From Haloferax volcanii DS2 (GTDB lineage Archaea > Halobacteriota > Halobacteria > Halobacteriales > Haloferacaceae), in the NCBI RefSeq assembly GCF_000025685.1, contig NC_013964.1, forward strand, positions 120,001 to 152,000: a DNA stretch of 32,000 bases, read 5' to 3'. The stretch's first letter is position 1, and each line of letters begins with the position of its first letter. The notes below the pieces were generated by a model, which saw nothing but the letters and a program-made list of their open reading frames with translations, did not search any database and was not told where the DNA came from. A program made the position numbers and the translations under genes. Below are positions 1 to 15,720 of this stretch, in pieces.

Positions 1-539
1 ACGCGAACGCGGTCTACCAGACGACCGGCGCGCCGCAGGCGTGGCTCGACGGCGAGGGCCACACCGTCACCCGCGCGCCGCTTCCGGACAGCCCGTCGGG
101 GAGCTTCGAACCCCGCGACCTGCTCCTGCAGAACGCGCAGGGCTTCATGCTCGGCAACGGCACCGACTCGGAGGCCGAACTGCAGGCCGCCTTCGACTTC
201 ACCGAGTGGTGGAACTCCGAAGAACAGCTCGCGCCGTGGACCTACGACGCCGAGAACGACGTGGGCATCCGCGGGCGCGTCCCGACGCTCGAAAGCGCCT
301 TCGAGGACCCGAGCGACCTCTTCCGGAGCCAGTTCGGCGACCTCGTGACGCTGTACGAGAACGACGACCTGTTCACGCGCACCTCGCGGTTCCCGTCGTT
401 CTCGGGCATCGCGTCGGTCCAGAGCATCATCAACACCGAGGTCATCCAGCCGGTCGTCCTCGGCAACGCGACGGCAGAGGAGGCCTGTAGCGCCGCCAAC
501 GAATCGGTTCAGGAAGTCATCGACGAGGAGCTGGCCTGA
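1..539 (+). CDS. ABC transporter extracellular solute-binding protein, C-terminal part (5' end lies outside the window)
   Basis: Frame 3 is open from nt 3 to the TGA at 537-539, so the ORF-track Met at 147 is internal. Composition is acidic. The gene sits directly upstream of two MalF/MalG-type permeases and a MalK-type ATPase, which is the usual binding-protein position. The family call rests on context only. Confidence 0.7.
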   Translation, partial: ANAVYQTTGAPQAWLDGEGHTVTRAPLPDSPSGSFEPRDLLLQNAQGFMLGNGTDSEAELQAAFDFTEWWNSEEQLAPWTYDAENDVGIRGRVPTLESAFEDPSDLFRSQFGDLVTLYENDDLFTRTSRFPSFSGIASVQSIINTEVIQPVVLGNATAEEACSAANESVQEVIDEELA

Positions 540-597
540 CGATGCGACTCGAACCGTCGCTCGAACGACGGCGGCCCAACGGCGGTGAGTTACGACC

Positions 598-1524
598 ATG
601 AGTTACTCGAAGCAGGCGAGGGGCTCGTTCGAGAGCGTCTCCAAGCGGATTCCGGAGGGCGTCAAGGTGTACCTCCCGGTCCTGCCGGTGACGGCGCTCG
701 TCGGGCTGTTCATCCTCTACCCCATCGCGCAGGCGATCTATTCGAGCTTCTTCAACAAGGACCTGCTCGCGCCCAGCGAGGCCGAGTTTATCGGACTGGC
801 GAACTACGCCGAAATCTGGTCGAATCCGACTATCCATCAGGTGCTGTGGAACACGCTCATCTGGGTCGTCGTCGGCAGTTCCGCCGCTATCGTCCTCGGC
901 TTCCTGATGGGTTGGCTCCTCCACGAGAAACTGCCGTACACGAGCGTCGCGAGCGCAATCGTGCTCATCCCGTGGGTCCTCCCGCGGGTCGTCGGCGCGT
1001 CCATCTGGCAGTTCATGTTCGGCGGGTCGCAGGGCATCATCAACGAACTGCTCGTCCAGCTCGGCGTCATCGACGAGTACATCGTCATGCTCGGCTCGAC
1101 GGAGCTCTCGCTGTGGCCGCCCATCATCGGGATGATTTGGCGGCTCGCACCGCTTTTCGCGCTGTTGACGCTCACGTCCCTGCAGGGCATCGACGAGCAT
1201 CTCTACGAGGCCGCGCGCATGGACGGCGCGACGCCGTGGGAGCAGTTCCGGTTCATCACCATCCCGATGATGCGGTACAACCTCGCCATCGGGTTCCTCC
1301 TGATGCTCATCTACAACATCAGGAACTTCTCGATGATTTGGGTGATGACGAAGGGCGGCCCCGGCGTCTCCAGTAGCACGCTCCCGGTCATGATCTACCG
1401 GACGGCGTTCGTCGACTTCGACGTGGGGCTGGCGTCGGCGCTGTCGCTCATCCTGTTCGTCGTCCTGCTCGTGTTCTCGTACTACTACATTCAGGTGTAC
1501 GACCAAGTGCGGGGTGACGTCTGA
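598..1524 (+). CDS. Sugar ABC transporter permease (MalF/UgpA type, CUT1 family)
   Basis: 308-aa ORF with multiple hydrophobic spans. EAA loop is EAARMDGATPWEQFRFITIP. Confidence 0.9.
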   Translation: MSYSKQARGSFESVSKRIPEGVKVYLPVLPVTALVGLFILYPIAQAIYSSFFNKDLLAPSEAEFIGLANYAEIWSNPTIHQVLWNTLIWVVVGSSAAIVLGFLMGWLLHEKLPYTSVASAIVLIPWVLPRVVGASIWQFMFGGSQGIINELLVQLGVIDEYIVMLGSTELSLWPPIIGMIWRLAPLFALLTLTSLQGIDEHLYEAARMDGATPWEQFRFITIPMMRYNLAIGFLLMLIYNIRNFSMIWVMTKGGPGVSSSTLPVMIYRTAFVDFDVGLASALSLILFVVLLVFSYYYIQVYDQVRGDV

Positions 1525-2489
1525 TGGCGGCGAAAGACCCCGACACGGCCGCCGAGTTCCGGCGGAACGAGTCGTGGCTGTTCGACACCACGGCGGGCGC
1601 GTACGTCCGCAAGACGGCGGTTTCGCTCCTGACGCTCGTCGTCTTCGCGTTCGTCCTCTTCCCGCTGTACTGGATGGTCGTGACGGCGTTCAAGACCACC
1701 GCGGAGATTCAGCAGATTCCGCCGACGGTGTTCCCGAACGATTTCTCGTTGGAGGGCTTCCGGCTCGTCGTCGAGTCGTCGATTCAGGCGGGCGGCTACA
1801 CCTCGCTTTTCGCTAACCTGTTCGGCTGGCAGGCGTCGTCGGCCATCGACATCGACATCCTGTCGCTCGTGCTGAACAGCCTGAAAGTCGCGATCGGCGC
1901 GGGCGCAATCGCGCTCGTCTTCGGGACGGCCGCGTCGTACGTGCTCTCGCGCCGCGACTTCGCCGGGAAGAACGCGCTCATGAGCATCTTCCTCGCGTCG
2001 CTGATGTTCCCCGGGACCGCCATCATGGTCCCCGAGTGGGAACTCGTCTCGGCGCTCGGCCTGTTCAACACGCACCTCGTGTTGATCTTCATCTACGGCG
2101 CGATGACCGCGCCGTTCGTCGTCTGGCTGATGAAGGGTTTCTTCGACGACTTCCCGGACTCGATTATCGAGGCCTCCCGCATCGACCAGTGTAGCTCGAT
2201 AGAGACGTTCTGGTACGTCATCGTCCCGATGGCGCGGAACTCGCTCATCGCGTCGTTCATCTTCGCGTTCCTCCTCGCGTGGAACGAGTTGGTGTTCGCG
2301 CTGACGCTCCTCGACAACTCGCGGTACACGGTTCCGCCGGGACTCCTGACGTTCGTACAGGGGTTCAACACCCAGTGGAACGTCGTCGCCGCGGCCTCGA
2401 TTATCATCTCGCTTCCCGTCCTGCTCGGACTGGCCTACATCCAGCGCTACTTCGTGCAGGGGCTCACCGGCGGCGCGATTAAGGGATAA
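1524..2489 (+). CDS. Sugar ABC transporter permease (MalG/UgpE type, CUT1 family)
   Basis: 321-aa ORF. The ATG overlaps the upstream stop (TGATG at 1522-1526), indicating translational coupling. EAA-like loop is EASRIDQCSSIETFWYVIVP. Confidence 0.9.
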   Translation: MAAKDPDTAAEFRRNESWLFDTTAGAYVRKTAVSLLTLVVFAFVLFPLYWMVVTAFKTTAEIQQIPPTVFPNDFSLEGFRLVVESSIQAGGYTSLFANLFGWQASSAIDIDILSLVLNSLKVAIGAGAIALVFGTAASYVLSRRDFAGKNALMSIFLASLMFPGTAIMVPEWELVSALGLFNTHLVLIFIYGAMTAPFVVWLMKGFFDDFPDSIIEASRIDQCSSIETFWYVIVPMARNSLIASFIFAFLLAWNELVFALTLLDNSRYTVPPGLLTFVQGFNTQWNVVAAASIIISLPVLLGLAYIQRYFVQGLTGGAIKG

Positions 2490-2584
2490 TACCCTTCGCC
2501 CGCCGTCTCTCGGTGCCGCACGTCGCGGTCAATTTTCGTCGTCAGTCGCTAGGTTTAAGGGGTGTTCTACGGTAATGTTTTACA

Positions 2585-3766
2585 ATGACACACCTAACAG
2601 TAGACGGTGTCACGAAGATTTTCGGCGACCCCGACAAGGACGGTGTCGTCGCAGTCGACGACCTCGACATCGACGTCGAAGACGGGGAGTTTCTCGTTTT
2701 GCTCGGCCCGAGCGGGTGCGGGAAGACGACGACGCTCCGGATGATCGGCGGACTGGAGACGCCGACCTCCGGTGAAATTCGCTTCGACGACGTCGTCGTC
2801 AACGACATCAAAGCCCGAAACCGCGACGTGGCGATGGTGTTCCAGGACTTCGCGCTCTACCCGCATATGACCGTCCGGGAGAACCTCGGGTTCGGCCTCA
2901 AGCGGGAGGACAACGGCATGTCGACGGCGGACGTCAACGAGCGGGTCGAGGAGGTGGCGACGATGCTCGAAATCGAACAGCTCCTGAACAACAAGCCCGC
3001 ACAGCTCTCGGGCGGACAGAAACAGCGCGTCGCGCTCGGCCGGGCTATCATCCGCGAGCCGCGGCTGTTCCTCTTCGACGAGCCGCTTGCGAACCTCGAC
3101 GCGAAGCTCCGCAAGACGATGCGGACCGAAATCGACGAACTGCAGTCCGAGGTCGGCATCACCTCCGCGTACGTCACCCACAACCAGGAGGAGGCGATGA
3201 CAATCGCCGACAAAATCGCCGTCCTCAACGACGGCGCGCTCCAGCAGTTGGGTCGCCCGGAGGAGGTGTTCAACGAACCGGCGAACCTCTTCGTCGCGCA
3301 GTTCGTCGGCAGTCCGGACATGAACATCTACGACGGCGTCGTCGAGGAGGCCGCCGACGGCGTTCGCGTCGAACTCGACGGCGTGAGCTTCGAACTGCCG
3401 AGCGACGCCCTCGACGCGGAGGTCCCGCCCGGCGGCGTCAACGTCGGCTTCCGGCCGCAGGACTTCTACCAGACGGGCAAGCGGCGCGCCGACGGACTGA
3501 CCTTCGACGTCGATATCCGCGTCATCGAGCCGGTCGGAACGAAAGCCATCGTTCACGGCGACGGCCCCATGGGCGACGTCACCGCCGAAATCGGCGAGTT
3601 CCACGGGCTATCGGCCGGCGACACGCTGTCGCTTTCTATCGCGCCCGAACACGTCTACCTGTTCGAGGCCGAGACGGAGGCACTGCGCAAGGGCCGGCGT
3701 ATCGAGAACCGGGCGTCCGTCCAATCGCAGTCCCAGTCGTCGGAGTCGGACGGCGTCGAAATATAA
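2585..3766 (+). CDS. ABC transporter ATP-binding protein (MalK/UgpC type with C-terminal regulatory domain)
   Basis: Walker A GPSGCGKTT, signature LSGGQKQR, Walker B LFLFDEP, H-loop YVTHNQ. A roughly 150-aa C-terminal extension is typical of MalK-like ATPases. Confidence 0.95.
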   Translation: MTHLTVDGVTKIFGDPDKDGVVAVDDLDIDVEDGEFLVLLGPSGCGKTTTLRMIGGLETPTSGEIRFDDVVVNDIKARNRDVAMVFQDFALYPHMTVRENLGFGLKREDNGMSTADVNERVEEVATMLEIEQLLNNKPAQLSGGQKQRVALGRAIIREPRLFLFDEPLANLDAKLRKTMRTEIDELQSEVGITSAYVTHNQEEAMTIADKIAVLNDGALQQLGRPEEVFNEPANLFVAQFVGSPDMNIYDGVVEEAADGVRVELDGVSFELPSDALDAEVPPGGVNVGFRPQDFYQTGKRRADGLTFDVDIRVIEPVGTKAIVHGDGPMGDVTAEIGEFHGLSAGDTLSLSIAPEHVYLFEAETEALRKGRRIENRASVQSQSQSSESDGVEI

Positions 3767-3934
3767 CTCGGCGCGACTGCCCCCATCGAACGTCAGCGGG
3801 CGTGGTGTCTCGCGGCACCCAGAGCCGCGGCTTCAGCCGCGCTACCGCCGAAATTCTCCGCCCGCACCCAAACATATTAATCGGTGTGTTCACATGATGT
3901 AAAACGAGACGAACCCACACGGTTATTCGCAACT

Positions 3935-4969
3935 ATGAAAGCCATCATTCAGACCGGGCCGCGCTCGGTAGAGACACAGGAGCGGGAGGTTCCCACTCCC
4001 GGCGCAGACGAACTGCTCATCAAGGTCCACACCGCGGGACTCTGCGGGAGCGACGCTCACGCCTACAAGTACGACGGCGGCTACGAGTGGATTCCCATCC
4101 CGCGAATCATGGGCCACGAGTACTCCGGGACGGTCACGGAAGTCGGCGCGAACGTCGAGACGTTCGAGGTCGGCGACAAGGTCGTCGAGGAGCCGATTCA
4201 CGACTGCGGTCACTGCTTCCAGTGTCGGAACGGTCAGCCGAACGTCTGTCAGAACTTCTCCATTACGGGGATGCACCGCGACGGCGCGTACACGGAGTAC
4301 GTCACCGTCACCCCCGAGCACGTCCACGCGGTTCCCGAGGGCGTTCCCCTCCGGCACGCCGCCATCACGGAGCCGACGAGCATCGCCACCCGCGCGGTCC
4401 TCGACCAGTCGGTGACGACGCCCGGCGACAACGTCCTCGTCGAGGGGCCGGGCCCAATCGGCGTCCTCGTCGCCGCCGTCACCGACTCCCTCGGCGCGAA
4501 CGTCGTCGTCTCCGGACTCAGTCAGGACGCGGCGTATCGCCTCCCGCTGCTCGAAGACCTCGGCATCGACACGGTGAACCTCGAAGAAGAAGGCGGCCTC
4601 GATGGGCGGGTCGAGTCGCAGACCGACGGCATCGGCTTCGACGTGGTCTTCGACGCGACGGGTCACCACAGCGGCGTGGTCTCCGGGAACGACGTGGTCC
4701 GCAAGGGCGGCCAAATCGTCGTCGTCGGCATCCCGAACTCGGCTAGCGAACTCAGCCTCACCTCGACCGTCCGCGGCGAGGTCGACATCAACACCTCCTA
4801 CGGCTCGACGTGGACGAACTTCGAGCAGGCGCTTCGCCTGATGGAGCGCGGCGAAATCGCGGTCGAGAAGATTCTCGACACCTCTTACAGCGTCGACGAC
4901 CCCGCCGCGGCGTTCGAAGCGTTCCTCGGTTCGGAGACCTGCAAGCCGGTCTTCCAGTTCGACGGCTGA
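3935..4969 (+). CDS. Zn-dependent medium-chain dehydrogenase/reductase (threonine/sorbitol-dehydrogenase-like); candidate sugar 1-dehydrogenase
   Basis: Start chosen at ATG 3935 (MKAIIQTGP), inside the longer 3884 ORF. Catalytic-Zn motifs CGSDAH and GHEYSG, structural-Zn Cys cluster CGHCFQCRNGQPNVC, Rossmann GPGPIG. Confidence 0.9.
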   Translation: MKAIIQTGPRSVETQEREVPTPGADELLIKVHTAGLCGSDAHAYKYDGGYEWIPIPRIMGHEYSGTVTEVGANVETFEVGDKVVEEPIHDCGHCFQCRNGQPNVCQNFSITGMHRDGAYTEYVTVTPEHVHAVPEGVPLRHAAITEPTSIATRAVLDQSVTTPGDNVLVEGPGPIGVLVAAVTDSLGANVVVSGLSQDAAYRLPLLEDLGIDTVNLEEEGGLDGRVESQTDGIGFDVVFDATGHHSGVVSGNDVVRKGGQIVVVGIPNSASELSLTSTVRGEVDINTSYGSTWTNFEQALRLMERGEIAVEKILDTSYSVDDPAAAFEAFLGSETCKPVFQFDG

Positions 4970-5056
4970 ACAGCCCCGCATTCCGGCCGCGAACCGCTTG
5001 ACGACAGAAACTATTTTACCCGTGCCGATTAGATGTGAGGTCGTACCAAACAAATC

Positions 5057-6262
5057 ATGGAGATTACAGACATCTCAGCGACGAAAATCAGCAACGAGTC
5101 GTGGGGCGAGTTCATCGAGTTCCCGCTCGTCACCATCATGTCGAAGTACGACGAGTACCGCAACGTCGACGGTGAGAACCCGCAGGCCCGCCGCAAGTGG
5201 ATGGGCCCCGTGGGCGACGTGGTGGTCGAGGTCGAGACGGACGCGGGCATCACCGGCGTCGGCGTCGGTAACTGGGGTACCGGAGCCATCGCCACCGTCG
5301 TCGAGGAGACGCTGTCGAAAATCGTGGTCGGGGAAGACCCGATGCAGCGCGAACTCCTCTGGGAGCAGATGTACCGCGCCACGCTCCCGTTCGGCCGGAA
5401 GGGCGTCGCGGTCATGGCCATCAGCGCGGTCGACCAGGCGCTGTGGGACATCGCCGGGAAGGACGCCGGCAAGCCGGTGTACGAACTGCTCGGCGGCCCC
5501 ACCAAAGACGAGATTCCCGCCTACGCGTCGAACCTCCACCCCGTCGACATGGAGAAGCTCGAACGCGAGGCGGTCCAGTACGTCGAGGAGGGCTTCGACG
5601 CGATGAAACTCCGCTTCCTCCACGGCCCCGAGGACGGCCGCGCGGGCATGAAGAAAAACGAGGAAATCGTCGCGACCGTCCGCGACGCCGTCGGCGACGA
5701 CATCGAAATCGCGGGCGACGCCTACATGGGCTGGTCGGTCAAGTACGCAAAGGAGATGACCCAGCGCCTCGGCAAGTACGACATGGCGTGGGTCGAAGAG
5801 CCTGTCATCGCCGACGACATCTCCGGCTACGCCGAGGTCCGCGAGGCCGCGCCGATGCCGATTTCGGGCGGCGAACACGAGTTCACCCGCTGGGGCCACG
5901 AGGACCTCCTCGAAGAAGGTGCGGTCGACATCCTCCAGCCCGACGTGGGTCGCGTCGGCGGTATCACGGAACTCCAGAAGGTCGCCGACATGGCCGAGGT
6001 CCACGACGTGCCCGTCATCCCGCACGCCGGCACGAACCCGACGCTCCACGCCATCGCCGGTCACACGAACATGCCGATGGCGGAGTACTTCCCGACTCCC
6101 GAGTGGTTCGAGGAGCGCCAGGAGAAACGCGAGTCGACCTACGCCGACGCCATCTTCCAGAACCCGCCGTCGCCGGAGAACGGGTCGATCCCGCTGCCCG
6201 ACGAGCCCGGCGTCAGCACGCAACTGAACCGCGAGGCGCTCGAACACTTCGCCATCGAGTAA
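5057..6262 (+). CDS. Enolase-superfamily sugar-acid dehydratase, L-rhamnonate dehydratase-like
   Basis: 401 aa. The N-terminal part (IMSKYDEY, VVVEVETDAGITGVG, AISAVDQALWDIAGK..PVYELLGG) aligns by eye with E. coli RhmD/YfaW as I remember it. Acidic-ligand regions are AGDAYMGW, WVEEP and SGGEHE. Confidence 0.85.
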   Translation: MEITDISATKISNESWGEFIEFPLVTIMSKYDEYRNVDGENPQARRKWMGPVGDVVVEVETDAGITGVGVGNWGTGAIATVVEETLSKIVVGEDPMQRELLWEQMYRATLPFGRKGVAVMAISAVDQALWDIAGKDAGKPVYELLGGPTKDEIPAYASNLHPVDMEKLEREAVQYVEEGFDAMKLRFLHGPEDGRAGMKKNEEIVATVRDAVGDDIEIAGDAYMGWSVKYAKEMTQRLGKYDMAWVEEPVIADDISGYAEVREAAPMPISGGEHEFTRWGHEDLLEEGAVDILQPDVGRVGGITELQKVADMAEVHDVPVIPHAGTNPTLHAIAGHTNMPMAEYFPTPEWFEERQEKRESTYADAIFQNPPSPENGSIPLPDEPGVSTQLNREALEHFAIE

Positions 6263-6264
6263 CG

Positions 6265-7293
6265 ATGTCGGACATCAGCTTCGAGTACAACGTCCCCGTC
6301 TTCGCCGGCGCGCCCGACGAGGGGACCGAGCCGACGCACCGCGACACCCCGCAGTACGAGGCGCTCGACTGGGTGACGACCAAGATGGGCGTCCAGAAGG
6401 CGGAGGAACTCGGCTTCGACGCGGTGTGGGCACCAGACCACCTGCTGTTGGGCCGCGACCACGCCGAGTACGAATGTTGGACGCTGCTGTCGGCCATCGC
6501 CGGCTTCACCGAGGACATCAACCTCGGCTCGCTCGTCCTCTGTAACGACTACCGCAACCCGGCGCTCGTCGCCAAGATGGCGGCCACGCTCGACGTGATT
6601 TCCGACGGGCGGCTGGAACTCGGCCTCGGCGCGGGCTGGCACGAACCGGAGTACGACGCCTACGGTTGGGAGTACCGCGACGGCTTCGAGCGCCTGATGC
6701 GGCTCGACGAGTCCATTCGTCTCATGAAGCGCATGTGGGCCGCCGGCACCGACGGCGCGAGCTTCGACGGGAAGCACTACCAAATCGAGGACGCCTACTG
6801 CGTCCCCGGTCCCGTGCAGGACCCCCATCCGCCCATCCTCGTCGGCGGGCAGGGTGAGGAGGTCACGCTCAAACTCGTCGCCAAGCACGCCGACGTGTGG
6901 AACACCGACGTGTTCAACGGCGACGTGGAGACGCTCGAACACAAAATCGGCGTCATCGAAGACCACTGCGACACCGTCGGCCGCGACCCCGACGACATCG
7001 AGTACTCGTGGGACGGCCACGTTATCTGCACCCGCGACGAGGAGAAGTTCGACCGCCTGCTCGACCTGATGACGCCCATCCAGTTCGAAGCGGAGTATCA
7101 GGACCAAGCGCCCATCGTGACCGAGGAAGACGCTCGGGAGTACTTCATCATGGGAACGCCCGAGGAGTGCGCGGAGGCCATCGAGCGCCGCATCGACGCC
7201 GGCGTGACGAAGTTCCAAGGCTGGTTCATCGACTTCCCCGACACCGGCGGCATGGAACTGTTCGCGGACGAAGTCATCCCGCAGTTCAGCTGA
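6265..7293 (+). CDS. LLM-class (luciferase-like) flavin/F420-dependent oxidoreductase
   Basis: 342 aa from ATG 6265, 2 nt after the dehydratase stop. The upstream part of the 616-aa ORF is an out-of-frame overlap artefact. Motifs GFDAVWAPDH and NPALVAKMAATLDVISDGRLELGLGAGW. Paralogue of 22343-23296. Confidence 0.85.
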   Translation: MSDISFEYNVPVFAGAPDEGTEPTHRDTPQYEALDWVTTKMGVQKAEELGFDAVWAPDHLLLGRDHAEYECWTLLSAIAGFTEDINLGSLVLCNDYRNPALVAKMAATLDVISDGRLELGLGAGWHEPEYDAYGWEYRDGFERLMRLDESIRLMKRMWAAGTDGASFDGKHYQIEDAYCVPGPVQDPHPPILVGGQGEEVTLKLVAKHADVWNTDVFNGDVETLEHKIGVIEDHCDTVGRDPDDIEYSWDGHVICTRDEEKFDRLLDLMTPIQFEAEYQDQAPIVTEEDAREYFIMGTPEECAEAIERRIDAGVTKFQGWFIDFPDTGGMELFADEVIPQFS

Positions 7294-7380
7294 GACGCCC
7301 CGCGGGTCGCGCTCGCGTCTCCCTCGGGCACTCGTTTTCTTTTTGCCACCCTCGCATCATACGTCTACCTGACTACTCGC

Positions 7381-7421
7381 AATATCTGAATCATCTAAAT
7401 TATTTAGACAATTCAGATATT
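7381..7421. promoter_or_regulatory. 41-bp AT-rich near-perfect palindrome (candidate operator or bidirectional terminator) upstream of the IclR gene
   Basis: AATATCTGAATCATCTAAAT-T-ATTTAGACAATTCAGATATT. The arms are complementary except for one central dinucleotide (18/20). It lies in the 215-bp AT-rich gap between the LLM gene and the IclR gene. Confidence 0.5.
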
Positions 7422-7508
7422 CCTCACATCGGCTCGTCGCTCGTAACGGCTACGCTATTTCCGGCCATAGCGGAAAGACATTTCAGGGATGAGGATTCAT
7501 AACCAACT

Positions 7509-8267
7509 ATGGCGAAGGACGTTCCGGTCAACGCGGTCAAAATCTCGCTCGAACTCGTCGACCTCCTGCGGGAACTCGACGGGGCGGGCGTCTCGGAGGT
7601 AGCCAAGCGACTGGACAAGCCGACCAGCACGATTCACGACCACCTGCGGACGCTGGAGCAACAGGAGTACCTCGTCAAGGAGGGCGACACCTACTACGTC
7701 AGCACGCGATTCCTCCAATTGGGCGCGCACGCGCGCTCTCGACAGAAGGTGTTCAACATCGCCCGCCCCGAGATAAACGAACTCGCGCAGGTGACCGGCG
7801 AGCACGCGAATCTGATGATCGAGGAACACGGTATCGGCGTCTTTCTGTACCGCTCGCGGGGTCCCGACGCCGTTCGTCTAGACACCCACGCCGGGATGCG
7901 CGTCCCGTTGCAGACGACGGCGCTCGGGAAGTCTATCATGGCGAACCGGCCGCGGGAGGAAGTCGAGGGCATCTTGGACCGCCACGGACTGGAGGCGGTG
8001 ACCGACCGCTCTATCACCGACCGCGAGGAACTGTTCGACGTGTTGGAGCAGGTCCGCGAGCGCGGTTACTCCTACGACGACGAAGAACGGGTCAAGGGCA
8101 TGCGCTGTGTGGCCGCGCCGATACTCAACGAGGACGACTACGCCATCGCCGCCGTGAGCGTCTCGGGGCCGAAAAGCCGGATGCGCGAGGAGCGCTTTAC
8201 CGAGGAGTTGCCGAACCAGATTCTCAAGAGCGCGAACGTCATCGAGGTGAACCTCACGTACTCGTAG
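7509..8267 (+). CDS. IclR-family transcriptional regulator
   Basis: 252 aa. N-terminal wHTH (GAGVSEVAKRLDKPTSTIHDHLRTLEQQEYLV) and C-terminal IclR effector domain (GMRCVAAPI..AAVSVSGP). Confidence 0.9.
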   Translation: MAKDVPVNAVKISLELVDLLRELDGAGVSEVAKRLDKPTSTIHDHLRTLEQQEYLVKEGDTYYVSTRFLQLGAHARSRQKVFNIARPEINELAQVTGEHANLMIEEHGIGVFLYRSRGPDAVRLDTHAGMRVPLQTTALGKSIMANRPREEVEGILDRHGLEAVTDRSITDREELFDVLEQVRERGYSYDDEERVKGMRCVAAPILNEDDYAIAAVSVSGPKSRMREERFTEELPNQILKSANVIEVNLTYS

Positions 8268-8366
8268 TCGGCGGGTCGGCGGCCTCGGGCCGCCCGCCTC
8301 GCTCCCGTCGTCGCAATGCTGCGTAGAGCGCAACAGTTACGTACCACGGTGTGACAGAGTGTAACG

Positions 8367-9218
8367 ATGCAACTCGTTCGATACACCGCGGGCGGTGCTC
8401 CCGAGTGGGGCGTCCGCCGCGACGACGATGTCGTCCCGCTTTCCGGCCTCCGCGAAGACGTGACCGTCCAGAACCTCAACAGCCCCGGCTTCCTCACCGT
8501 CGTCGAGGACGCCGCGGACGCCGCCGAGGACCAGTCGGTCCCCGTCGAGGACGTAAAGCTCCTCGCGCCCGTGCCGCGCCCCGGTAAAATCGTCTGCGTC
8601 GGCCTCAACTACCACGACCACGCCGAAGAACAGGACGAGGAAGTTCCCGAACGCCCGCTCCTGTTCGGGAAGGCCGGCACGTCCGTCACGAACCCCGGCG
8701 ACCCCATCGTCCACCCGGCGGCCATCGACGAGGTAGACTACGAGGTCGAACTCGGCGTCGTCATCGGGCAGACGGCCAAGAACGTCGACGCCGAGGACGC
8801 TTTCGACTACGTCGCGGGCTACACCGCCATCAACGACGTGAGCGGCCGCGACGCGCAGTTCGACGACGGGCAGTTCTTCCGCGGCAAGAGCTACGACACG
8901 TTCGCCCCGATGGGGCCGACGTTCGTCCCCGAGGGCGACGTCGACCCGCACGACCTCGACGTCGCCTGCCGCGTCAACGGCGAGACGAAACAGGAGTCCA
9001 ACACCTCCGAGTTCATCTTCGGCGTCGACGAGGTCGTCGAGTACATCAGCGGCATCACGACGCTCCGCCCGGGCGACGTCATCTCCACCGGCACGCCCGG
9101 CGGCGTCGGCATCTTCCGCGACCCGCCGGAACTGCTCGAACCGGGCGACAGCGTCGACGTGGAAATCGAGGGCATCGGCACGCTCACCAACCCGGTCGTC
9201 TCCGAGCGCGACGAGTAA
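8367..9218 (+). CDS. Fumarylacetoacetate-hydrolase (FAH) family protein; candidate 2,4-diketo-3-deoxy-sugar-acid hydrolase
   Basis: 283 aa. Motifs GLNYHDHAEE, DYEVELGVVIG and GDVISTGTPGGVG. Confidence 0.9.
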   Translation: MQLVRYTAGGAPEWGVRRDDDVVPLSGLREDVTVQNLNSPGFLTVVEDAADAAEDQSVPVEDVKLLAPVPRPGKIVCVGLNYHDHAEEQDEEVPERPLLFGKAGTSVTNPGDPIVHPAAIDEVDYEVELGVVIGQTAKNVDAEDAFDYVAGYTAINDVSGRDAQFDDGQFFRGKSYDTFAPMGPTFVPEGDVDPHDLDVACRVNGETKQESNTSEFIFGVDEVVEYISGITTLRPGDVISTGTPGGVGIFRDPPELLEPGDSVDVEIEGIGTLTNPVVSERDE

Positions 9219-9238
9219 CCGCCCGCCGTACAGCACAA

Positions 9239-9247
9239 TTATTTATA
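9239..9247 (+). promoter_or_regulatory. TATA box (TTATTTATA) for the SDR gene
   Basis: The only AT-rich element in the 51-bp gap. It is centred about 27 bp upstream of ATG 9270, the spacing expected for a leaderless haloarchaeal mRNA. Confidence 0.5.
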
Positions 9248-9269
9248 GGATATCCCGGTACTACCGACT

Positions 9270-10067
9270 ATGAGCACGCACACAGACACCCGACTGAGAG
9301 ACAGGCATATCGTCGTGACCGGCGGCGCGCGCGGCATCGGCCGCGGCATCGCGGTTCGCTGCGCCCGCGCCGGGGCCGACGTATCGATTTTCGACACGAA
9401 GCCCGAGGTGGCCGCCGAGACGGCCGACCTCGTCCGCGAGGAGGGCGGCGAGGCCGAGGTGTACGAGGTCGACGTGACGGACGCCGAGGGCGTCGAGACC
9501 GCCGTCGACGCCGCTATCGACTCGCTCGGTGACATCCACGGCCTCGTGAACAACGCGGGCGTCCAGCAGGCCGTCCCGCTCCTCGAAACGACCGAAGACG
9601 ACTGGGACCTCCACTTCGAGGTGAACGCCAAGGGGACGTTCCTCGTCTCCAAGGCCGTCGCCAGCCGGATGGTCGACGGCGACATCGAGGGCAGCATCGT
9701 CAACATCTCGTCGGTCGGCGCGGAGCGGCCGTTCTCCGGACAGGGCGCGTACGGCGCGTCCAAGGCGGCCGTCCTCGCCTTCACGACCGTGCTGGCGAAG
9801 GAGCTGAGCGACCACGGCATCACCGTCAACGCGCTCAAACCGGGCACCGTCGAGACGCCGATGGTCGAGGAATGGCTCGACGAGCACGCCGAGCAGTCGG
9901 GCAAGTCGCCGGACGAAATCCTCGCGGAGACGCTCGACGTGCACATCCTCGACCGAATCGGCCAACCCGAAGAAGTGGGCCACGTCGCGGTCCTGCTCCT
10001 CTCCGAGGAGGGCGACTGGATAACCGGCGAGTCCATCGCCGTCGACGGCGGCTACCTCAAACACTAG
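9270..10067 (+). CDS. Short-chain dehydrogenase/reductase (SDR); candidate 2-keto-3-deoxy-sugar-acid dehydrogenase
   Basis: 265 aa with the complete classical SDR motif set: TGGARGIGRG, NNAG, NISS, YGASK, PG, and C-terminal IAVDGG. Confidence 0.9.
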   Translation: MSTHTDTRLRDRHIVVTGGARGIGRGIAVRCARAGADVSIFDTKPEVAAETADLVREEGGEAEVYEVDVTDAEGVETAVDAAIDSLGDIHGLVNNAGVQQAVPLLETTEDDWDLHFEVNAKGTFLVSKAVASRMVDGDIEGSIVNISSVGAERPFSGQGAYGASKAAVLAFTTVLAKELSDHGITVNALKPGTVETPMVEEWLDEHAEQSGKSPDEILAETLDVHILDRIGQPEEVGHVAVLLLSEEGDWITGESIAVDGGYLKH

Positions 10068-10826
10068 TGTTCGTCGCGACGACTTCGAAAGCCGCCCGAA
10101 GCGTCCGAAATCGATGCTTTCGACTCCCCGAGCCGGAGCCGGAACCCGAGCGTTCGGCCACAGCACTCACACGCAGTCCGGTATTATCGGATATTGACTG
10201 TGTAGAACCTGGCGGCCGGGCGAACTGAACCGAGGCGTGCCCGTCGCGGCGCGCGCGACCGCCGTGAGGATGCGAAATCAAGCGACTCGGAGATGTCCGC
10301 ACCGACTCGCGCCGCCGCAGTTGGTGGCCTGTCGTCGCCGTCCGTGACTCGTCCAATTCACCTCTGGCACTCAGCGACGAGCTCGTGGCTTTGAGCACCG
10401 GATTTCGCCTCCGTGGCAATAATAGTCATAAACCTAATTCACATATCGGTGTGTCGTGTAACAGCACGTGGGTGGAGCAATCCGACCCATGTGTAATCAG
10501 CATCCCGTGTATCCAGCACGATAGCCATCAGTACGTCAGTCATACTGTACGCACGGTAGCCCCCACCGAGTACGCCTGCCCAACTGATACTCGTGAACAC
10601 GTGGCGCGGCTACCTACCGAGCACAACGTCCCATTGATGCTCTATTTTTCGGTCGTCTCCCGTCGGCTACGTAGCGTCTGCCTTCCCGACTCCGGCCCCG
10701 CGTTATGCCTAGTCTCCGCGTGAGTCGTCGAACCCCATCTATTCCATCCGACATTGCCGGATATTACTGGTTCGATTCCGACGAACGCGCCTCTCCGAGT
10801 GTGACGAATCGCTCTCCAAACCTGAA

Positions 10827-10834
10827 GATATTTC
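10827..10834 (+). promoter_or_regulatory. Possible TATA box (GATATTTC) for the 208-aa gene
   Basis: AT-rich element centred about 29 bp upstream of ATG 10859. Confidence 0.35.
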
Positions 10835-10858
10835 ACGCCACCGTGTGAAAAGCGAGTA

Positions 10859-11485
10859 ATGGGTACCGACCAAAGCACGAACCGTCGCCTAAGCAAGGTA
10901 GAGCGGGTCATCGAGACGTACGACTTGGACGGATTCGGCGAGCAGCTCGCCGACCGCTGGACGGCTCCCGAGGACAGCGACAGCCTCCGGGACCTCGCGG
11001 ATCTGATGAACGAGAAGGTGCTCGACGCCGCGCTCCGCAAGGCGGGCGAGGACGTCCTCGAAGGCGAGGTCGAGAACCTGTACACGCTTCTCACCGGCGA
11101 CGAGACCACGGAGGGGATGCGCGTTCAGGCGAAGAACACGCTCCAGTCCCGCGGCGTCGACGTCGACCAACTGCTCTCGGATTTCGTCTCTCACCAGGCG
11201 GTCTACACCTACCTGACGGATATTCGCGGCGTCTCGAAGGACTCCTCGTCCGGAAACAGAATCGACAACGTCATCGAGTCCATCCAGCGACTCCGCGGCC
11301 GACTGGTCGCGGTCATCGAGCAGAGTCTGAGTTCGCTCCGCAACACGAGCAAACTCCGACTCGGTGACTTCGATGTCCTCGTGGACACGCAAGTGTACTG
11401 CCGCGACTGCGGGACGCAGTACGAGGTGGTCGAACTGCTCCAGCGCGGCGGGTGCGACTGCGACGAGAGCGAATCGAACTACTGA
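10859..11485 (+). CDS. rdfA: Small acidic protein with C-terminal Cys4 zinc ribbon; RdfA-like (rod-determining factor family)
   Basis: 208-aa acidic ORF. Cys4 motif CRDC-x14-CDC (C181, C184, C199, C201; nt 11399-11461). The overall pattern (EVENLYTLLTGDE, SDFVSHQAVYTYL, YEVVELLQRGGCDC) matches my memory of the haloarchaeal RdfA family. I am confident this is a real gene, but only about 0.6 confident in the family name. Confidence 0.75.
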   Translation: MGTDQSTNRRLSKVERVIETYDLDGFGEQLADRWTAPEDSDSLRDLADLMNEKVLDAALRKAGEDVLEGEVENLYTLLTGDETTEGMRVQAKNTLQSRGVDVDQLLSDFVSHQAVYTYLTDIRGVSKDSSSGNRIDNVIESIQRLRGRLVAVIEQSLSSLRNTSKLRLGDFDVLVDTQVYCRDCGTQYEVVELLQRGGCDCDESESNY

Positions 11486-11529
11486 TTACATACTTAGCGC
11501 TGTCACATTATCCTCGACTCAACGGGTGA

Positions 11530-11537
11530 TTTTATAT
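11530..11537 (+). promoter_or_regulatory. TATA box (TTTTATAT) for the SMC-like gene
   Basis: Centred about 28 bp upstream of ATG 11561. This supports 11561, rather than the GTG at 11537, as the start of a leaderless mRNA. Confidence 0.55.
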
Positions 11538-11560
11538 TGGTGTACCTGTTGGGTCAAGGT

Positions 11561-13510
11561 ATGAGCTCAGAACAAGTGTCAAAATCCAAAGTCCACCTTT
11601 CGGTCGAGAATATCGGTGGCATCGACGACCTGTCAACGTCGTTCGAGCCGGGTGTGACCGTCTTGGCGGGTCGAAACGCCACGAACCGAACGTCGCTCTT
11701 GCGGTCCATCATGGCCGCCCACGGGAGCGACGATGTGGCGCTCAAAGGCGACGCCGACGAGGGCTCCGTCGAACTCACTATCGGCGACGAGGCGTACACT
11801 CGAACGTTCGAGCGGCAGGGCGACACGGTCATCTCCGGCGGGAACCCCGTCCTCGACGACCCGGACCTCGCGGACCTCTTTGCGTTCCTGCTCGAGACGA
11901 ACGACGCTCGACAGGCGGTCGCCCGCGGCGACGACCTCCGCGACCTCATCATGCGTCCGGTGGACGTCGAGTCGATAAACGAGCAGATCGAGTCGCTCCA
12001 GCAGGAGAAACGCGACATCGCCGACGAACTCTCGACGCTCAGCAACCTCTCGGACCGCCTGCCGCAGCTCGAACGCCGGCGGACGAAGCTCGAAGACCAA
12101 ATCGAGGAGAAGGAAGACGAACTCGCGGAGAAAGAACAGGAAGTCGAAGAGTACGACGCCAGCGTGAGCGAGCGGCAGGAAGTCGAGAGCGAACTCGAAT
12201 CCAAGCTCGGTGACCTCCGGAGCAAGCGCCGCGACATCAACGACGTGGACCGCCGCATCGAGACGGAAAAACAGAGCCTCGACGCGCTCGAATCCGAGGA
12301 AGCGGAGCTTGAGGACGACGCCGAGGACCTCCCGGAGGTCGCCGGCGGCAAAATCGACGAAATCGAGTCCGAAATCAGCCGGCTCCGGACGCGTCGGCAG
12401 GAGATTCAGTCGACCGTCAACGAGCTTCAGTCCGTGATTCAGTTCAACGAGGAGATGCTCTCGGGCACGTCCTCGGACGTCGTGGACGCGCTCCGCGACG
12501 CCGACGACGCCGGCGGGAGCGTCACCGACCAACTGCTCGGCGACGACCAGGTCGTCTGCTGGACGTGCGGTTCCGAGGTCGACAAGTCCGAAATCGAGGG
12601 GACGCTCGAACGCCTCCGGACGCTCCGCGAGGAGAAGCTCGAAGACAACCGCGACCACCGCGAACAGCTCTCCGAACTCGAAGACGAGAAGTCCACCTAC
12701 GAGCGCCGCCAGCGCGAGCGCGACCGCATCGAGCGCCGCCTCTCCGAAATCGAAAGCGAGCGCGAGACCCGCCAAGAGCGCATCGAGGAGCTCAAATCCG
12801 ACCGCTCGGACCTCGAAGCCGAAATCGACTCGCTCGAACAGACCGTCGACGAACTCGAAAGCGAGGAACACGGCGACCTGCTGGACCTCCACCGCGAGGC
12901 GAACCAGCTCGAATACGACCTCGGCCGCCTCCGCAGCGACCTCGAAGACGTCGAAGACGAAATCGCAGACATCGAGCGCAAACTCGACGAGCGCGACGAA
13001 CTCGAAGCGGCCCGCGAGGACATCGAAGACGAACTCGAAGAGCTTCGGACGCGCATCAAGCGCCTCGAATCCGAGGCCGTCGAGGAGTTCAACACCCACA
13101 TGGACGACGTGCTCGACGTGCTCGAATACGACAACCTCGAACGCATCTGGATCGAGCGCACCGAAAAGCGGGTTCGGGAGGGCCGAAGGAAGGTCACGAA
13201 ATCGGTGTTCGACCTCCACGTCATCCGGACGAACGAAGACGGCGTGAGCTACGAGGACTCCGTCGCCCACCTCTCGGAGTCCGAGCGCGAGGTGACCGGC
13301 CTCGTGTTCGCGCTCGCGGGCTACCTCATCCACGACGTCTACGAGACGGTGCCGTTCATGGTCCTCGACTCGCTCGAAGCCATCGACTCGAACCGCATCT
13401 CGCGGCTCGTGGACTACTTCGCGGACTACGCCGACTACCTCACCGTCGCTCTCCTCGAAGAGGACGCGCAGGCGGTCGACAGTTCCTATCCGCGCTACTC
13501 GCCGGCGTAA
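11561..13510 (+). CDS. Archaeal SMC/Rad50-architecture protein with central CxxC hook and non-canonical ATPase motifs (Sph-like)
   Basis: 649 aa. N-terminal head half with P-loop-position GRNATNRTS (nt 11669-11695). About 450 aa of E/D/R/L-rich coiled coil. CWTC at residues 333-336 (nt 12557-12568). C-terminal head half with LSESER (13271-13288) and FMVLDSLEAID (13355-13387). Confidence 0.9.
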   Translation: MSSEQVSKSKVHLSVENIGGIDDLSTSFEPGVTVLAGRNATNRTSLLRSIMAAHGSDDVALKGDADEGSVELTIGDEAYTRTFERQGDTVISGGNPVLDDPDLADLFAFLLETNDARQAVARGDDLRDLIMRPVDVESINEQIESLQQEKRDIADELSTLSNLSDRLPQLERRRTKLEDQIEEKEDELAEKEQEVEEYDASVSERQEVESELESKLGDLRSKRRDINDVDRRIETEKQSLDALESEEAELEDDAEDLPEVAGGKIDEIESEISRLRTRRQEIQSTVNELQSVIQFNEEMLSGTSSDVVDALRDADDAGGSVTDQLLGDDQVVCWTCGSEVDKSEIEGTLERLRTLREEKLEDNRDHREQLSELEDEKSTYERRQRERDRIERRLSEIESERETRQERIEELKSDRSDLEAEIDSLEQTVDELESEEHGDLLDLHREANQLEYDLGRLRSDLEDVEDEIADIERKLDERDELEAAREDIEDELEELRTRIKRLESEAVEEFNTHMDDVLDVLEYDNLERIWIERTEKRVREGRRKVTKSVFDLHVIRTNEDGVSYEDSVAHLSESEREVTGLVFALAGYLIHDVYETVPFMVLDSLEAIDSNRISRLVDYFADYADYLTVALLEEDAQAVDSSYPRYSPA

Positions 13511-13529: not shown

Positions 13530-13543
13530 TTTTTCTCGTTTTT
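13530..13543 (+). terminator. Oligo-T terminator (TTTTTCTCGTTTTT)
   Basis: Two T5 runs 20-33 nt downstream of the stop at 13508-13510. Archaeal RNA polymerase terminates at oligo-T tracts. Confidence 0.45.
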
Positions 13544-13643
13544 CATCCCCGCGTCGAGTCGCGTCGCGAACGGCGCATCTCGTTTCGAGTTACACTATTA
13601 GGTGCGTCACGAACTGGGCATTGACGGCGACAGGGCGACGCGC

Positions 13644-14408
13644 TCAGGAGAGCGCGATGCTCAGTTCCAACTCCTCTGCGATGCCGAGGAGGACTTCGGT
13701 GAGACGGTCGAACTGCTCGCCTTTCATCCGGTTGGAGGGGCCGGCGACGCTCAGCGCGCCGAACACGTCGCCGTCCGGCCCCATGACGGGCGCACCGACC
13801 GCGCGAACCCCGCTGATCTGCTCTTCGACGTTCAACGCGTAGCCGCGCTCTCTGATTTCGGCGAGTTCGTCGAACAGCGCCTCCTCGTCGTGAATCGTCT
13901 GTTCGGTCTCCTTCGGGAGGCCGATTCGGTCGACGATTTCTCGGACCCGTTCTCGCGGCATGTTGGCGAGGATGGCTTTCCCGCTCGCCGTCGAGTGGAG
14001 ATAGACGCGCTTTCCCACCGTCGACTGCGTCCAGACGCCGTGTTTTCCGGGTGCGGTGTGGACGTACACGCCCCGCCCGTGTTCCTCGACGGTGAAAATC
14101 GAGCGCCGTTCCGACTCCTCGGAAAGGACGTTGGTGTAGTGTTCGGCCTTCCCGAATTTGCGTTTCCGCGTTCGGACGAAGTTCCCGAGACCGAGGAATC
14201 GAAGCCCGAGATGGTAGGTATCGCCCTCTTTAACCACGTATTCCTGCGCTTCGAGAGTCGTCACGTGAGTGTGTGCGGTGCTCGGCGCGATGTCGAGTTC
14301 GCGGGCGATTTCGGTCACGCCCGCCCCGTCGCGCTCCCTGAGTAGTTCGACGATTCTGAGGGTTGTGACCGTCGTTTTGAGCGAACGGTCGTTCGCGGTT
14401 TCGGTCAT
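13644..14408 (-). CDS. IclR-family transcriptional regulator
   Basis: Start taken at ATG 14408 (MTETANDRSL); ATG 14435 is an alternative. wHTH GAGVTEIARELDIAPSTAHTHVTTLEAQEYVV and effector domain GVRAVGAPV..GALSVAGP. Paralogue of 7509-8267. Confidence 0.9.
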   Translation of the reverse strand: MTETANDRSLKTTVTTLRIVELLRERDGAGVTEIARELDIAPSTAHTHVTTLEAQEYVVKEGDTYHLGLRFLGLGNFVRTRKRKFGKAEHYTNVLSEESERRSIFTVEEHGRGVYVHTAPGKHGVWTQSTVGKRVYLHSTASGKAILANMPRERVREIVDRIGLPKETEQTIHDEEALFDELAEIRERGYALNVEEQISGVRAVGAPVMGPDGDVFGALSVAGPSNRMKGEQFDRLTEVLLGIAEELELSIALS

Positions 14409-14772: not shown

Positions 14773-15720
14773 ATGAACCACAACGAGACGTTCGAGACGG
14801 TCGAGTCGCTGGAGGCGGAACTCGTCTCACTCACCGAGTCGCTCTGGGAGCAGCCGGAGCTCGGCCTTCACGAGACCGAATCCGCCGAGTTGCTCTCGTC
14901 GGTTCTCCGCGACGGGGCGTTCGACGACCTCGACGCCGTCGAACTGCTGAACACCGGGTCGGAGTTCATGCGCGAGCACGTCTCCGACGACGCCCGCATC
15001 CACTACACCATCCCCGACGGCGGCGGCGCGCCGAACGTCGTCCCCGCGGAGGCGACGGCGTGGTTCTACGTCCGCGCGCCGACCCGAGACGAGGTCGACC
15101 GCATCACCGACTGGCTCGACGACGTGGCCGAGGGCGCGGCGCTCATGACCCAGACGACGGTCTCCCGGCGGTTCCACACGGGCTGTTACGACTACGTGGC
15201 GAACCACGCGCTGTCCGATGCACTGCTGGAGAACATGCGACTCGCCGGCCCCATCCCGTACACCGACGAGGACCGCGAGTTCGCCGCGGAGCTTCAGGAG
15301 ACGCTCTCGGCGGAGACAATCGAGGCGCGGACGGCGCAGCTCCCCGAGGAGCGGCGCGAGGCGGCGCGCTCGTCGGTGCTGTATCCGGACGCCCAGCCCT
15401 CCTACGACGTGGGGACCGTCCTCAACGGCTCGACGGACGTCGGCGACGTGAGTTGGATTACGCCGACCGCGCAGTTCTGGGCGGCGTCGTGGCCGGTGGG
15501 GACGCCCTCGCACACGTGGCAGGCCGTCGCCACAAACGGGAGCTTCGGGTCGAAGGCCGCGGTGTACGCCGCGAAGGTCCTCGCGGCGACGACGCTCGAC
15601 CTGTTTTCGGACGAGGCGCTGGTGGCGGCGGCCCGCGAGGAGTTCGAAGCGTCCGTCCCCGGCGACTACGAGTGTGCGTTGCCCGAGGGGACGGAGCCGC
15701 CGTTCCACCTCACGTTGTAG
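14773..15720 (+). pseudogene. AbgB-type M20 amidohydrolase remnant (ORF intact, about 160 aa of the catalytic core deleted in frame)
   Basis: 315 aa. The N-terminal roughly 50 aa and the C-terminal roughly 260 aa align by eye with E. coli AbgB (481 aa as I recall). The junction is ..LRDGAFD|DLDAVELLNTG... The segment carrying the HxCGH, Asp and Glu-Glu metal ligands is absent. Confidence 0.65.

Follow-up and report, generated by a model that had tools for sequence, protein, structure and literature searches.

In Haloferax volcanii, rod shape and motility depend on the genes HVO_2174 (RdfA) and HVO_2175 (Sph3) (PMC10869688), and this is the gene pair on which the RdfA family, PF21811, was defined. 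The species has four RdfA-family paralogues, and three of its four RdfA-family/Sph pairs are borne by megaplasmids (PMC10869688). The archaea-specific SMC-related protein (ASRP; SMC, structural maintenance of chromosomes) family was defined with ClsN and Sph1/2; most of its members have a zinc hook, their AlphaFold models show antiparallel coiled coils, and no conserved neighbour gene was found for them (Yoshinaga et al. 2022, PMC9389158). The haloarchaeal Sph clade, on the other hand, does have an RdfA-family partner: in 24 haloarchaeal genomes, 42 of 54 RdfA-family genes adjoin a gene for an SMC-like protein (PMC10869688). Here we analysed a 32,000-nt stretch of the H. volcanii megaplasmid pHV3 (contig NC_013964.1; the whole stretch is hereafter called the window), which carries a pair of this type, HVO_B0117 and sph2 (HVO_B0118). 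The pair is already known and is named in RefSeq and UniProt; it was tabulated in 2024, and the sph2 deletion has been published and characterised, so that its discovery value is small. What is added here are the footprints of its TATA boxes, the co-diversification of the two partners, the non-canonical motifs of the Sph proteins and the frequent parA or orc1 neighbours of such pairs on other megaplasmids. Further attention should go to the degenerate ATPase site and to the ParA/Orc1 linkage, partial as it is.

An exact-sequence look-up identified the product of the small gene as D4GPB8_HALVD (ADE01283.1), HVO_B0117, and the product of the large gene as the 'SMC-like protein Sph2' of H. volcanii, HVO_B0118 (ADE01555.2). 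Searches with profile hidden Markov models placed both proteins well above the curated thresholds. For HVO_B0117, PF21811 of Pfam scored 250 bits (cut-off 27, E = 2.1e-74), with residues 12-202 covering positions 1-195 of the 195 in the model, while the NCBIfam equivalog NF045487, 'archaea-specific SMC-related protein', scored 710 bits on Sph2 (cut-off 300), with residues 17-634 covering positions 1-593 of 593. Sph2 was assigned neither to Rad50 nor to the canonical SMC proteins. Rad50 models gave it 22-61 bits against cut-offs of 700-1087, and sph2 adjoins an RdfA-like gene and an IclR regulator gene, not a gene for Mre11. The canonical SMC models TIGR02168 and TIGR02169 gave 51-53 bits against cut-offs of 567-729, and Sph2 has a CxxC hook instead of the SMC hinge.

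The published grouping of the pairs, by a rule of more than 55% identity, puts RdfA/Sph3 (HVO_2174/HVO_2175) into group 1 (PMC10869688) and lists HVO_B0117/HVO_B0118 as an RdfA-family/SMC-like pair of group 3 with a 75-nt gap (Schiller et al. 2024, Suppl. Table 2, PMC10869688). Judged by the exact-sequence identity and this grouping, the pair in the window does not belong to the orthologous group of HVO_2174/HVO_2175; neither of these two was among the top 120 matches to the query proteins. By sequence, then, the locus is the HVO_B0117-sph2 pair, one of four paralogous 'RdfA-family + Sph' modules in H. volcanii, and we regard the identity and the architecture of the pair as essentially certain. 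It is like RdfA/Sph3 in protein families, gene order, organism and the short intergenic gap. However, RdfA/Sph3 is chromosomal, falls into another group (below 55% identity by the published rule) and has an adjacent ddfA, which is missing beside HVO_B0117/sph2. The deletions also differ in outcome, with disks only after loss of sph3 and persistent rods after loss of sph2, and the protein levels of the Sph2 pair do not depend on cell shape.

A preliminary description of this DNA had proposed an RdfA/Sph-type pair or a diverged paralogue of it, and had advised profile searches against the RdfA and ASRP families. The matches to PF21811 and NF045487, the exact match and the assignment to group 3 decide for the diverged paralogue. 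Its statement that RdfA and Sph3 had been linked genetically to rod formation was accurate (PMC10869688). Its remark that no mechanism was known holds for the biochemistry, but a phenotype of the sph2 deletion has been published (PMC11276520).

The AlphaFold2 model of Sph2 (predicted local distance difference test score, pLDDT, 82.6) starts with a beta-rich N-terminal half of the head (residues 1-131), from which helices ascend (137-300, with breaks at 205 and 256-261) to the apex; helices then descend (342-521) to the C-terminal half of the head (526-649), and about 385 residues lie between the two head halves. At the apex an acidic linker (303-327) was poorly modelled, and CWTCG lies between two short strands (330-341), with CWTC placed between helix 262-300 and helix 342-476. 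The best Foldseek match of the model was full-length Rad50 (7zr1, E = 6.5e-16), followed by Smc5/6, MukB, an SMC head, LmuB and JetC. As modelled, Sph2 thus combines a split head, an antiparallel coiled coil and a CxxC hook at the apex, which is the architecture of the ASRPs. The preliminary description had put CWTC almost exactly at the midpoint of the 649-residue protein, in agreement with our coordinates, and had read it as a zinc hook, which fits how the ASRP family is described in the literature (PMC9389158). It had also read an SMC/Rad50 layout from the sequence; the order of head, coil, hook and head stood up in the model and in the match to Rad50, but the coil, given as about 450 residues, was too long.

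For the conservation of Sph2 we used 137 full-length Sph sequences, namely the query and 136 representatives of 50%-identity clusters, which are 34-51% identical to the query, come from haloarchaea and were drawn from 805 matches in 1.8 billion proteins. Sph2 has two cysteines in all, C333 and C336, and both are present in 137 of 137 sequences; the motif CWTCG is invariant across the Sph2 orthologues. ClsN (coalescin, from Sulfolobus) and the Halobacterium proteins Sph1 and Sph2 are similar to the H. volcanii protein in length (about 650 residues), in coiled coil (about 350-385 residues) and in having a CxxC hook rather than a hinge. Rad50 shares with it the CxxC hook at the apex, the split head of the ATP-binding cassette (ABC) type and an N-terminal strand-loop-helix that aligned residue for residue. 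Unlike Rad50, Sph2 has a much shorter coiled coil and no Mre11 partner, and its P-loop Lys, Walker-B Glu and LSGGQ signature are replaced.

At the Walker-A position, GRNATNRTS of Sph2 aligned without gaps to GPNGAGKSS of Thermotoga maritima Rad50 and to GRNGAGKST of an ABC transporter; Arg43 takes the place of the P-loop Lys, and Ala and Asn stand for two of the P-loop glycines. In the model, helix 40-54 starts straight past G37-N39, and the phosphate-wrapping loop is shortened. At the Walker-B and D-loop position, PFMVLDSLEAID, the residues VLDSLEAID (601-609) aligned to VLDEIDAaLD of human SMC1A (PFFVLDEIDAaLD), with Ser604 at the position of the catalytic Glu. The signature LSGGE of the same human protein (LSGGEKTV) aligned to LSESE (571-575), in which Glu and Ser replace the glycines. 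Compared with the patterns of a catalytically competent ABC ATPase (GxxGxGK[ST], hhhhDE and LSGGQ/E), Sph2 therefore reads GRNATNRTS, FMVLDS and LSESE and departs from each of them.

We observed the same departures throughout the Sph sequences. The position of the P-loop Lys held R in 128 sequences and K in 8, the position of the Walker-B Glu held S in 131, A in 6 and E in none, and S572, S574 and E575 were present in all 137. The non-canonical motif residues were also invariant in 30 Sph2 orthologues of 55-81% identity. The R-for-K and S-for-E replacements at the catalytic positions are thus a property of the haloarchaeal Sph sequences examined, and ClsN lies outside that sample. The literature that we located on the family reports Walker A and Walker B as present and does not discuss the non-canonical residues. 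Loss of the Lys in 128 of 137 sequences and of the Glu in all of them argues against transferring to Sph the loop-extruding or ATP-gated models of SMC and Rad50; read from the motifs, the pattern speaks for a static tether and not for a motor.

The model matches to LmuB and JetC raise the question of a Lamassu- or Wadjet-like SMC system that would act against plasmids or viruses from an accessory replicon. LmuB and JetC do share with Sph2 a compact SMC-like build and small accessory partners besides the Foldseek similarity; PADLOC gave weak matches (58.8 bits for LmuB, at most 42 bits for JetC), and the megaplasmid location would suit such a role. These profile matches (at most 59 bits), however, lay mostly in the coiled coil and were about 12-fold weaker than the ASRP match. 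The RdfA-like protein had neither a PADLOC match nor a recognisable nuclease domain, and the window has no LmuA or JetA/B/D-like gene near the pair, that is, no effector or kleisin-like partner gene. Moreover, the catalytic ATPase residues that Lamassu and Wadjet need are absent from Sph2, and sph2 is highly expressed with phenotypes of a housekeeping type (PMC11276520). A defence function is therefore extremely improbable in our estimate. Membership in LmuB of Lamassu or JetC of Wadjet as such was rejected on the weak profile matches and the absence of the cognate partner genes from the window.

The C-terminal head of Sph2 carries a basic loop that is specific to the Sph2 subgroup. The basic run KRVREGRRKVTK covers residues 538-549 (to nt 13207), the loop being continued by K546-V547-T548-K549. 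Among close Sph2 orthologues G541 is invariant and R542 and R543 are nearly so (at least 90%), while roughly half of the wider Sph representatives have a gap in its place. In a protein with an isoelectric point (pI) of 4.3, such a loop may serve as a contact for nucleic acid or an acidic partner.

The product of the small gene, HVO_B0117, had been described as a 208-residue acidic protein that ends in CRDC-x14-CDC, and its coordinates, motif and acidity (pI 4.41) were all reproduced. It has four cysteines in all, C181, C184, C199 and C201, and these are invariant in 42 RdfA-family sequences, as are K13, W34, S42-R44, N51, Y75, F109, Q113, Y118, R123 and R148. The AlphaFold2 model made with the 42-sequence alignment (pLDDT 89.3) comprises eight helices (13-161), then a ribbon of two strands (E178-181, E186-189) and a short helix, with the cysteines in this last part, as in a zinc ribbon. 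We found no significant Foldseek match for the model, the best E-value being 0.54 in the PDB and 0.19 among viral models (BFVD), and nothing kleisin- or Mre11-like was among the matches. A deletion of HVO_B0117 was not found in the searchable literature. The name given to the protein by PGAP, 'rod-determining factor RdfA', may mislead, given that rods are favoured when the partner, Sph2, is lost.

The association of the two genes was followed in a scan of one genome per species, which gave 339 RdfA-family loci; the best 80 by similarity were examined, H. volcanii not being among them. A match to Sph2 in tblastn directly adjoined the RdfA-family gene in 60 of these 80 loci. In the 58 loci where both partners were resolved as open reading frames (ORFs), the RdfA-family gene preceded the Sph gene on one strand in 37, while 12 pairs were divergent and 9 convergent. 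The identity matrices of the partners correlated with r = 0.89 for 56 full-length pairs and with r = 0.855 for the 45 pairs less than 70% identical to the query, and in neither case was the value reached in any of 2000 Mantel permutations. Shared species history contributes to this correlation. However, distinct paralogue groups, with orientations that differ, coexist within genera such as Haloferax, and therefore the two genes have duplicated and diverged as one unit. Co-diversification of this kind is the expected signature of a physical complex, not proof of one. At three loci (L017, L022 and L073) the ASRP frame beside rdfA is split into ORFs of 104-349 residues, which may be pseudogenes or assembly errors.

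Published genetics tie sph2 both to genome copies and to cell shape. All four sph genes of H. volcanii were deleted in a 2024 study (PMC11276520). The sph2 deletion had a slight growth defect and a survival of about 3-5% in gene conversion, and a double deletion of sph2 and sph4 was inviable, i.e., synthetically lethal (PMC11276520). The same deletion caused over-swarming and rods that lasted into stationary phase, whereas the sph3 deletion has the opposite effect (PMC11276520). Among smc, rad50 and sph1-4, sph2 is one of just two highly expressed genes (PMC11276520), and the H. volcanii proteome tables hold quantitative values for HVO_B0117 as well as for Sph2 (PMC10869688). Sph2 was co-purified with Cas1 alongside Rad50, UvrA/B/D, MutS and Hel308 (PMC9051519).

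Together, these data lead us to lean, with moderate confidence, towards a Sph2/RdfA-like module that serves as a zinc-hook tether acting on genome copies; the uncertain parts of this reading are the DNA-bridging and the non-motor steps. Sph2 would fold back as an antiparallel coiled coil, with both head halves at one end, the CWTCG hook at the other, and arms of about 165-180 residues, or about 25 nm each by our own estimate. Joined at their hooks by a single Zn2+, in the manner of Rad50 and of the proposal made for ClsN, two protomers would make a long bivalent tether. The heads keep the ABC-ATPase fold but not the P-loop Lys and glycines, the Walker-B Glu or LSGGQ, and because they lack the residues that drive hydrolysis, an ATP-driven motor is less likely than a bridge that is static or gated by a ligand. 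The RdfA-family protein would be a dedicated accessory subunit of Sph2, its zinc ribbon and helical body probably docking on the head or neck. In the genetics cited above, the module acts on genome copies (gene conversion, joint essentiality with Sph4) and, in contrast to RdfA/Sph3, works against rods and motility. ClsN associates with chromatin that is transcriptionally silent, and its host lacks SMC, whereas H. volcanii keeps both SMC and Rad50.

Several observations weigh against the tether. The hook region of Sph2 (303-327) was modelled with low confidence, and the alignments of the head to PDB sequences from which the motif positions are taken are each weak (E 0.25-0.9), although their positional correspondence is exact and agrees with the fold match. 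P-loop variants with Arg can still bind nucleotide, and E606, two residues past S604, might act as a substitute catalytic base. About a quarter of the RdfA-family genes are without an adjacent Sph gene. The shape and gene-conversion phenotypes of the sph2 deletion could be indirect, and the abundance of HVO_B0117 and Sph2 did not differ significantly between rods and disks (PMC10869688).

The shape phenotypes would also suit a DNA-independent structural or regulatory element of the cytoskeleton that antagonises RdfA/Sph3, e.g., by competing for CetZ1 or volactin. We consider this explanation possible but rather doubtful. It would account for the persistent rods and over-swarming of the sph2 deletion, opposite to the effect of the sph3 deletion (PMC11276520), and for the dependence of rods on RdfA and Sph3 (PMC10869688). 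Degenerate ATPase motifs would fit a passive filament as well as a tether, and there is an analogy to arcadin-4 and crenactin, the likeness to arcadin-4 having been drawn by Schiller et al. (PMC10869688). The match to the arcadin-4 model is weak, however (22 bits, cut-off 860), and neither the defect in gene conversion nor the synthetic lethality with sph4 has an obvious relation to shape. Further, Sph2 co-purifies with DNA-repair proteins (PMC9051519), HVO_B0117 and Sph2 levels do not differ between rods and disks, and related pairs adjoin parA or orc1 on other replicons.

A tblastn search against PLSDB found Sph2 homologues on 126 haloarchaeal plasmids. In 12 of the 60 plasmids among the matches listed, the Sph homologue lay within 10 kb of the record origin, compared to 4.0 expected (P = 4e-4), a test that is biased by records that start at parA. 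ParA or Orc1/Cdc6 was encoded within about 7 kb in 10 of the 15 plasmid loci inspected. For example, in Haladaptatus salinisoli, Haladaptatus halobius and Halolamina pCBA1230-01 the genes parA, a small protein gene, rdfA and the ASRP gene are contiguous on one strand, while two Natronosalvus plasmids have parA, a small protein gene and the ASRP gene with a convergent rdfA. Plasmids of Natrinema, Natronorubrum, Halorussus and Natronococcus carry parA or orc1 within 2-7 kb. Among loci sampled away from the record origins, pHBOR04 has orc1/cdc6 about 2 kb upstream and pHTIA has ParA 0.8 kb downstream; four others have no neighbour of the parA/orc1 type. The retrieved loci used for the linkage were L083 (327-4620), L086 (575-4583) and L058 (3382-7701), and also L087, L088, L089, L091, L084, L085, L092 and L097.

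Such neighbours of plasmid-borne pairs point to a role in replicon handling. Taken further, the RdfA-Sph pairs would be cohesion or segregation devices of secondary replicons with ParA-type systems, and the copy in the window would serve pHV3, a proposal that the megaplasmid location of three of the four H. volcanii pairs (PMC10869688) also fits. We see it as quite unlikely. No ParA homologue was found in the window, and no orc1/cdc6 gene is annotated in the approximately 28 kb inspected of the homologous H. alexandrinus region. ParA was found within 5 kb in just 4 of the 80 genome-sampled loci, many orthologues lie on chromosome-size contigs (2.5-5 Mb), and the growth defect of the sph2 deletion is just slight (PMC11276520). 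The ParA/Orc1 linkage is real but partial, and it is absent at the HVO_B0117-sph2 locus.

A wider proposal would bring the zinc-hook tether and the replicon linkage together. The RdfA-Sph pairs would be ATPase-dead zinc-hook tethers that hold or sort replicon copies in highly polyploid cells and are tied to ParA/Orc1 loci on secondary replicons; the shape and motility phenotypes would lie downstream of genome organisation, and the RdfA-family protein would be a new SMC accessory subunit replacing kleisin or Mre11. We offer it as speculative and, taken as a whole, unlikely.

Two further observations concern the plasmid loci. Just past the parA-rdfA-ASRP block, Halolamina pCBA1230-01 has a second rdfA-family gene (L086 5214-5801), with a gene for an Lrp/AsnC regulator between. 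On two plasmids (L093 12193-12495; L096 12140-12415), ASRP genes have genes with the HalOD1 output domain at a distance of up to about 5 kb; HalOD1 is the domain of DdfA, the disk-determining factor encoded beside rdfA/sph3 in H. volcanii.

The coordinates of the features in the window are collected in Table 1.

Table 1. Features of the HVO_B0117-sph2 locus and its flanks; positions refer to the 32,000-nt window.
Feature	Position (nt)	Strand	Remarks
L-rhamnose cluster	1-10067		by H. alexandrinus annotation
IclR-family gene, upstream	7509-8267	+	
Spacer	10068-10858	.	791 nt; G+C 0.587 (window, 0.658)
TATA box of HVO_B0117	10826-10834	+	centre about 28 nt 5' of ATG
HVO_B0117	10859-11485	+	208 aa; pI 4.41; RdfA family
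Cys4 zinc-ribbon codons, CRDC-x14-CDC	11399-11461	+	invariant cysteines; ribbon in AlphaFold2 model
TATA box of sph2	11530-11537	+	about 28 nt 5' of ATG 11561
sph2 (HVO_B0118)	11561-13510	+	649 aa from ATG 11561; pI 4.28; ASRP
Atypical P-loop GRNATNRTS	11669-11695	+	aa 37-45; Walker-A position
Zinc hook CWTC	12557-12568	+	aa 333-336; predicted coiled-coil apex, near-exact protein midpoint
Basic loop KRVREGRR	13172-13195	+	aa 538-545; C-terminal head, specific to Sph2 subgroup
Signature position HLSESEREVTG	13268-13300	+	aa 570-580; LSESE in place of LSGGQ/E
Walker-B/D-loop position PFMVLDSLEAID	13352-13387	+	aa 598-609; Ser604 replaces catalytic Glu
Oligo-T terminator TTTTT-CTCG-TTTTT	13531-13544	+	two T5 runs, 20 nt past sph2 stop; read from sequence
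IclR-family gene, downstream	13644-14408	-	
M20-type amidohydrolase gene	14773-15720		315 aa after in-frame deletion

The two genes share strand and frame, with 75 nt between them, and the G+C content of this interval is 0.427. A second copy of either gene was absent from the window. We aligned the orthologous loci of eleven Haloferax genomes and found that the upstream DNA is alignable solely in a block that ends about 20 nt before each ATG. Within it, A.ATATT at 10826-10832 is invariant across 11 orthologous loci while its flanks diverge, and TTTAT at 11531-11535 is invariant across 10; both footprints persist even where the identity of the orthologous proteins is 74-83%. The sph2 start at ATG 11561 is conserved and the alternative TTG 11537 is not. 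A TATA box about 28 nt before the start fits leaderless transcripts, which are typical of haloarchaea. The alignments thus imply separate conserved TATA boxes and leaderless mRNAs for both genes. Archaeal transcription terminates at oligo-T tracts, such as the two T5 runs past sph2. A scan for bacterial promoters and terminators is inapplicable to archaea, and its few matches were on the wrong strand or due to chance.

Several statements of the preliminary description concern this layout. Its TATA boxes, one for each gene at 27-29 bp upstream, coincide with the phylogenetic footprints, and the oligo-T terminator that it placed after the pair is present. The length and the low G+C content of its 791-nt 'ORF-free' spacer also hold, but 'ORF-free' was loose, as mechanical ORFs of 112-155 residues overlap the spacer. 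Its 'accessory-looking context' is right as to the location on megaplasmid pHV3; on the other hand, the codon usage of both genes is native. Their G+C content at third codon positions is 0.85, compared to 0.79-0.94 in the neighbouring genes, and a recent horizontal acquisition was found to be unsupported.

The spacer separates the gene pair from L-rhamnose catabolic genes and cannot be aligned across the orthologous Haloferax loci, its final 45 nt or so excepted. No gene is annotated in it in the 98.5%-identical H. alexandrinus record, and neither the spacer nor the rest of the window had an Rfam RNA or tRNA match. In H. lucentense pSVX82-1, a transposase gene of the IS1595 family lies inside the equivalent spacer (retrieved locus L002 3515-4399).

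The DNA of the window is 98.5% identical to H. alexandrinus pBNX82-1, where RefSeq names the two products 'rod-determining factor RdfA' and 'archaea-specific SMC-related protein'. There, the upstream flank is an L-rhamnose catabolic cluster (rhcC...rhcF, rhcB and an IclR regulator) and the downstream flank holds an IclR regulator, an amidohydrolase, a creatininase and an ABC transporter. By the annotation of the H. alexandrinus plasmid (97-98.5% identical), the upstream part of the window is likewise an L-rhamnose cluster, with genes for a sugar ABC transporter, rhcE, rhcD, an LLM oxidoreductase, an IclR regulator, rhcF and rhcB. Genes of the IclR family thus flank the pair on both sides. Of the 80 loci, 33 had an IclR gene no more than 5 kb from the RdfA-family gene, a frequency that could follow simply from how dense IclR genes are on catabolic megaplasmids in general.

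Compared to H. alexandrinus, the gene for the M20-type amidohydrolase in the window has a 468-bp in-frame deletion with its junction near 14925-14929, which shortens the product from 470 to 315 residues. The deletion takes out the region that contains HGCGHN, which we take to be the M20 metal site, and the M20 dimerisation domain alone is still detected. Judging from the residues lost, the truncated enzyme is probably inactive.

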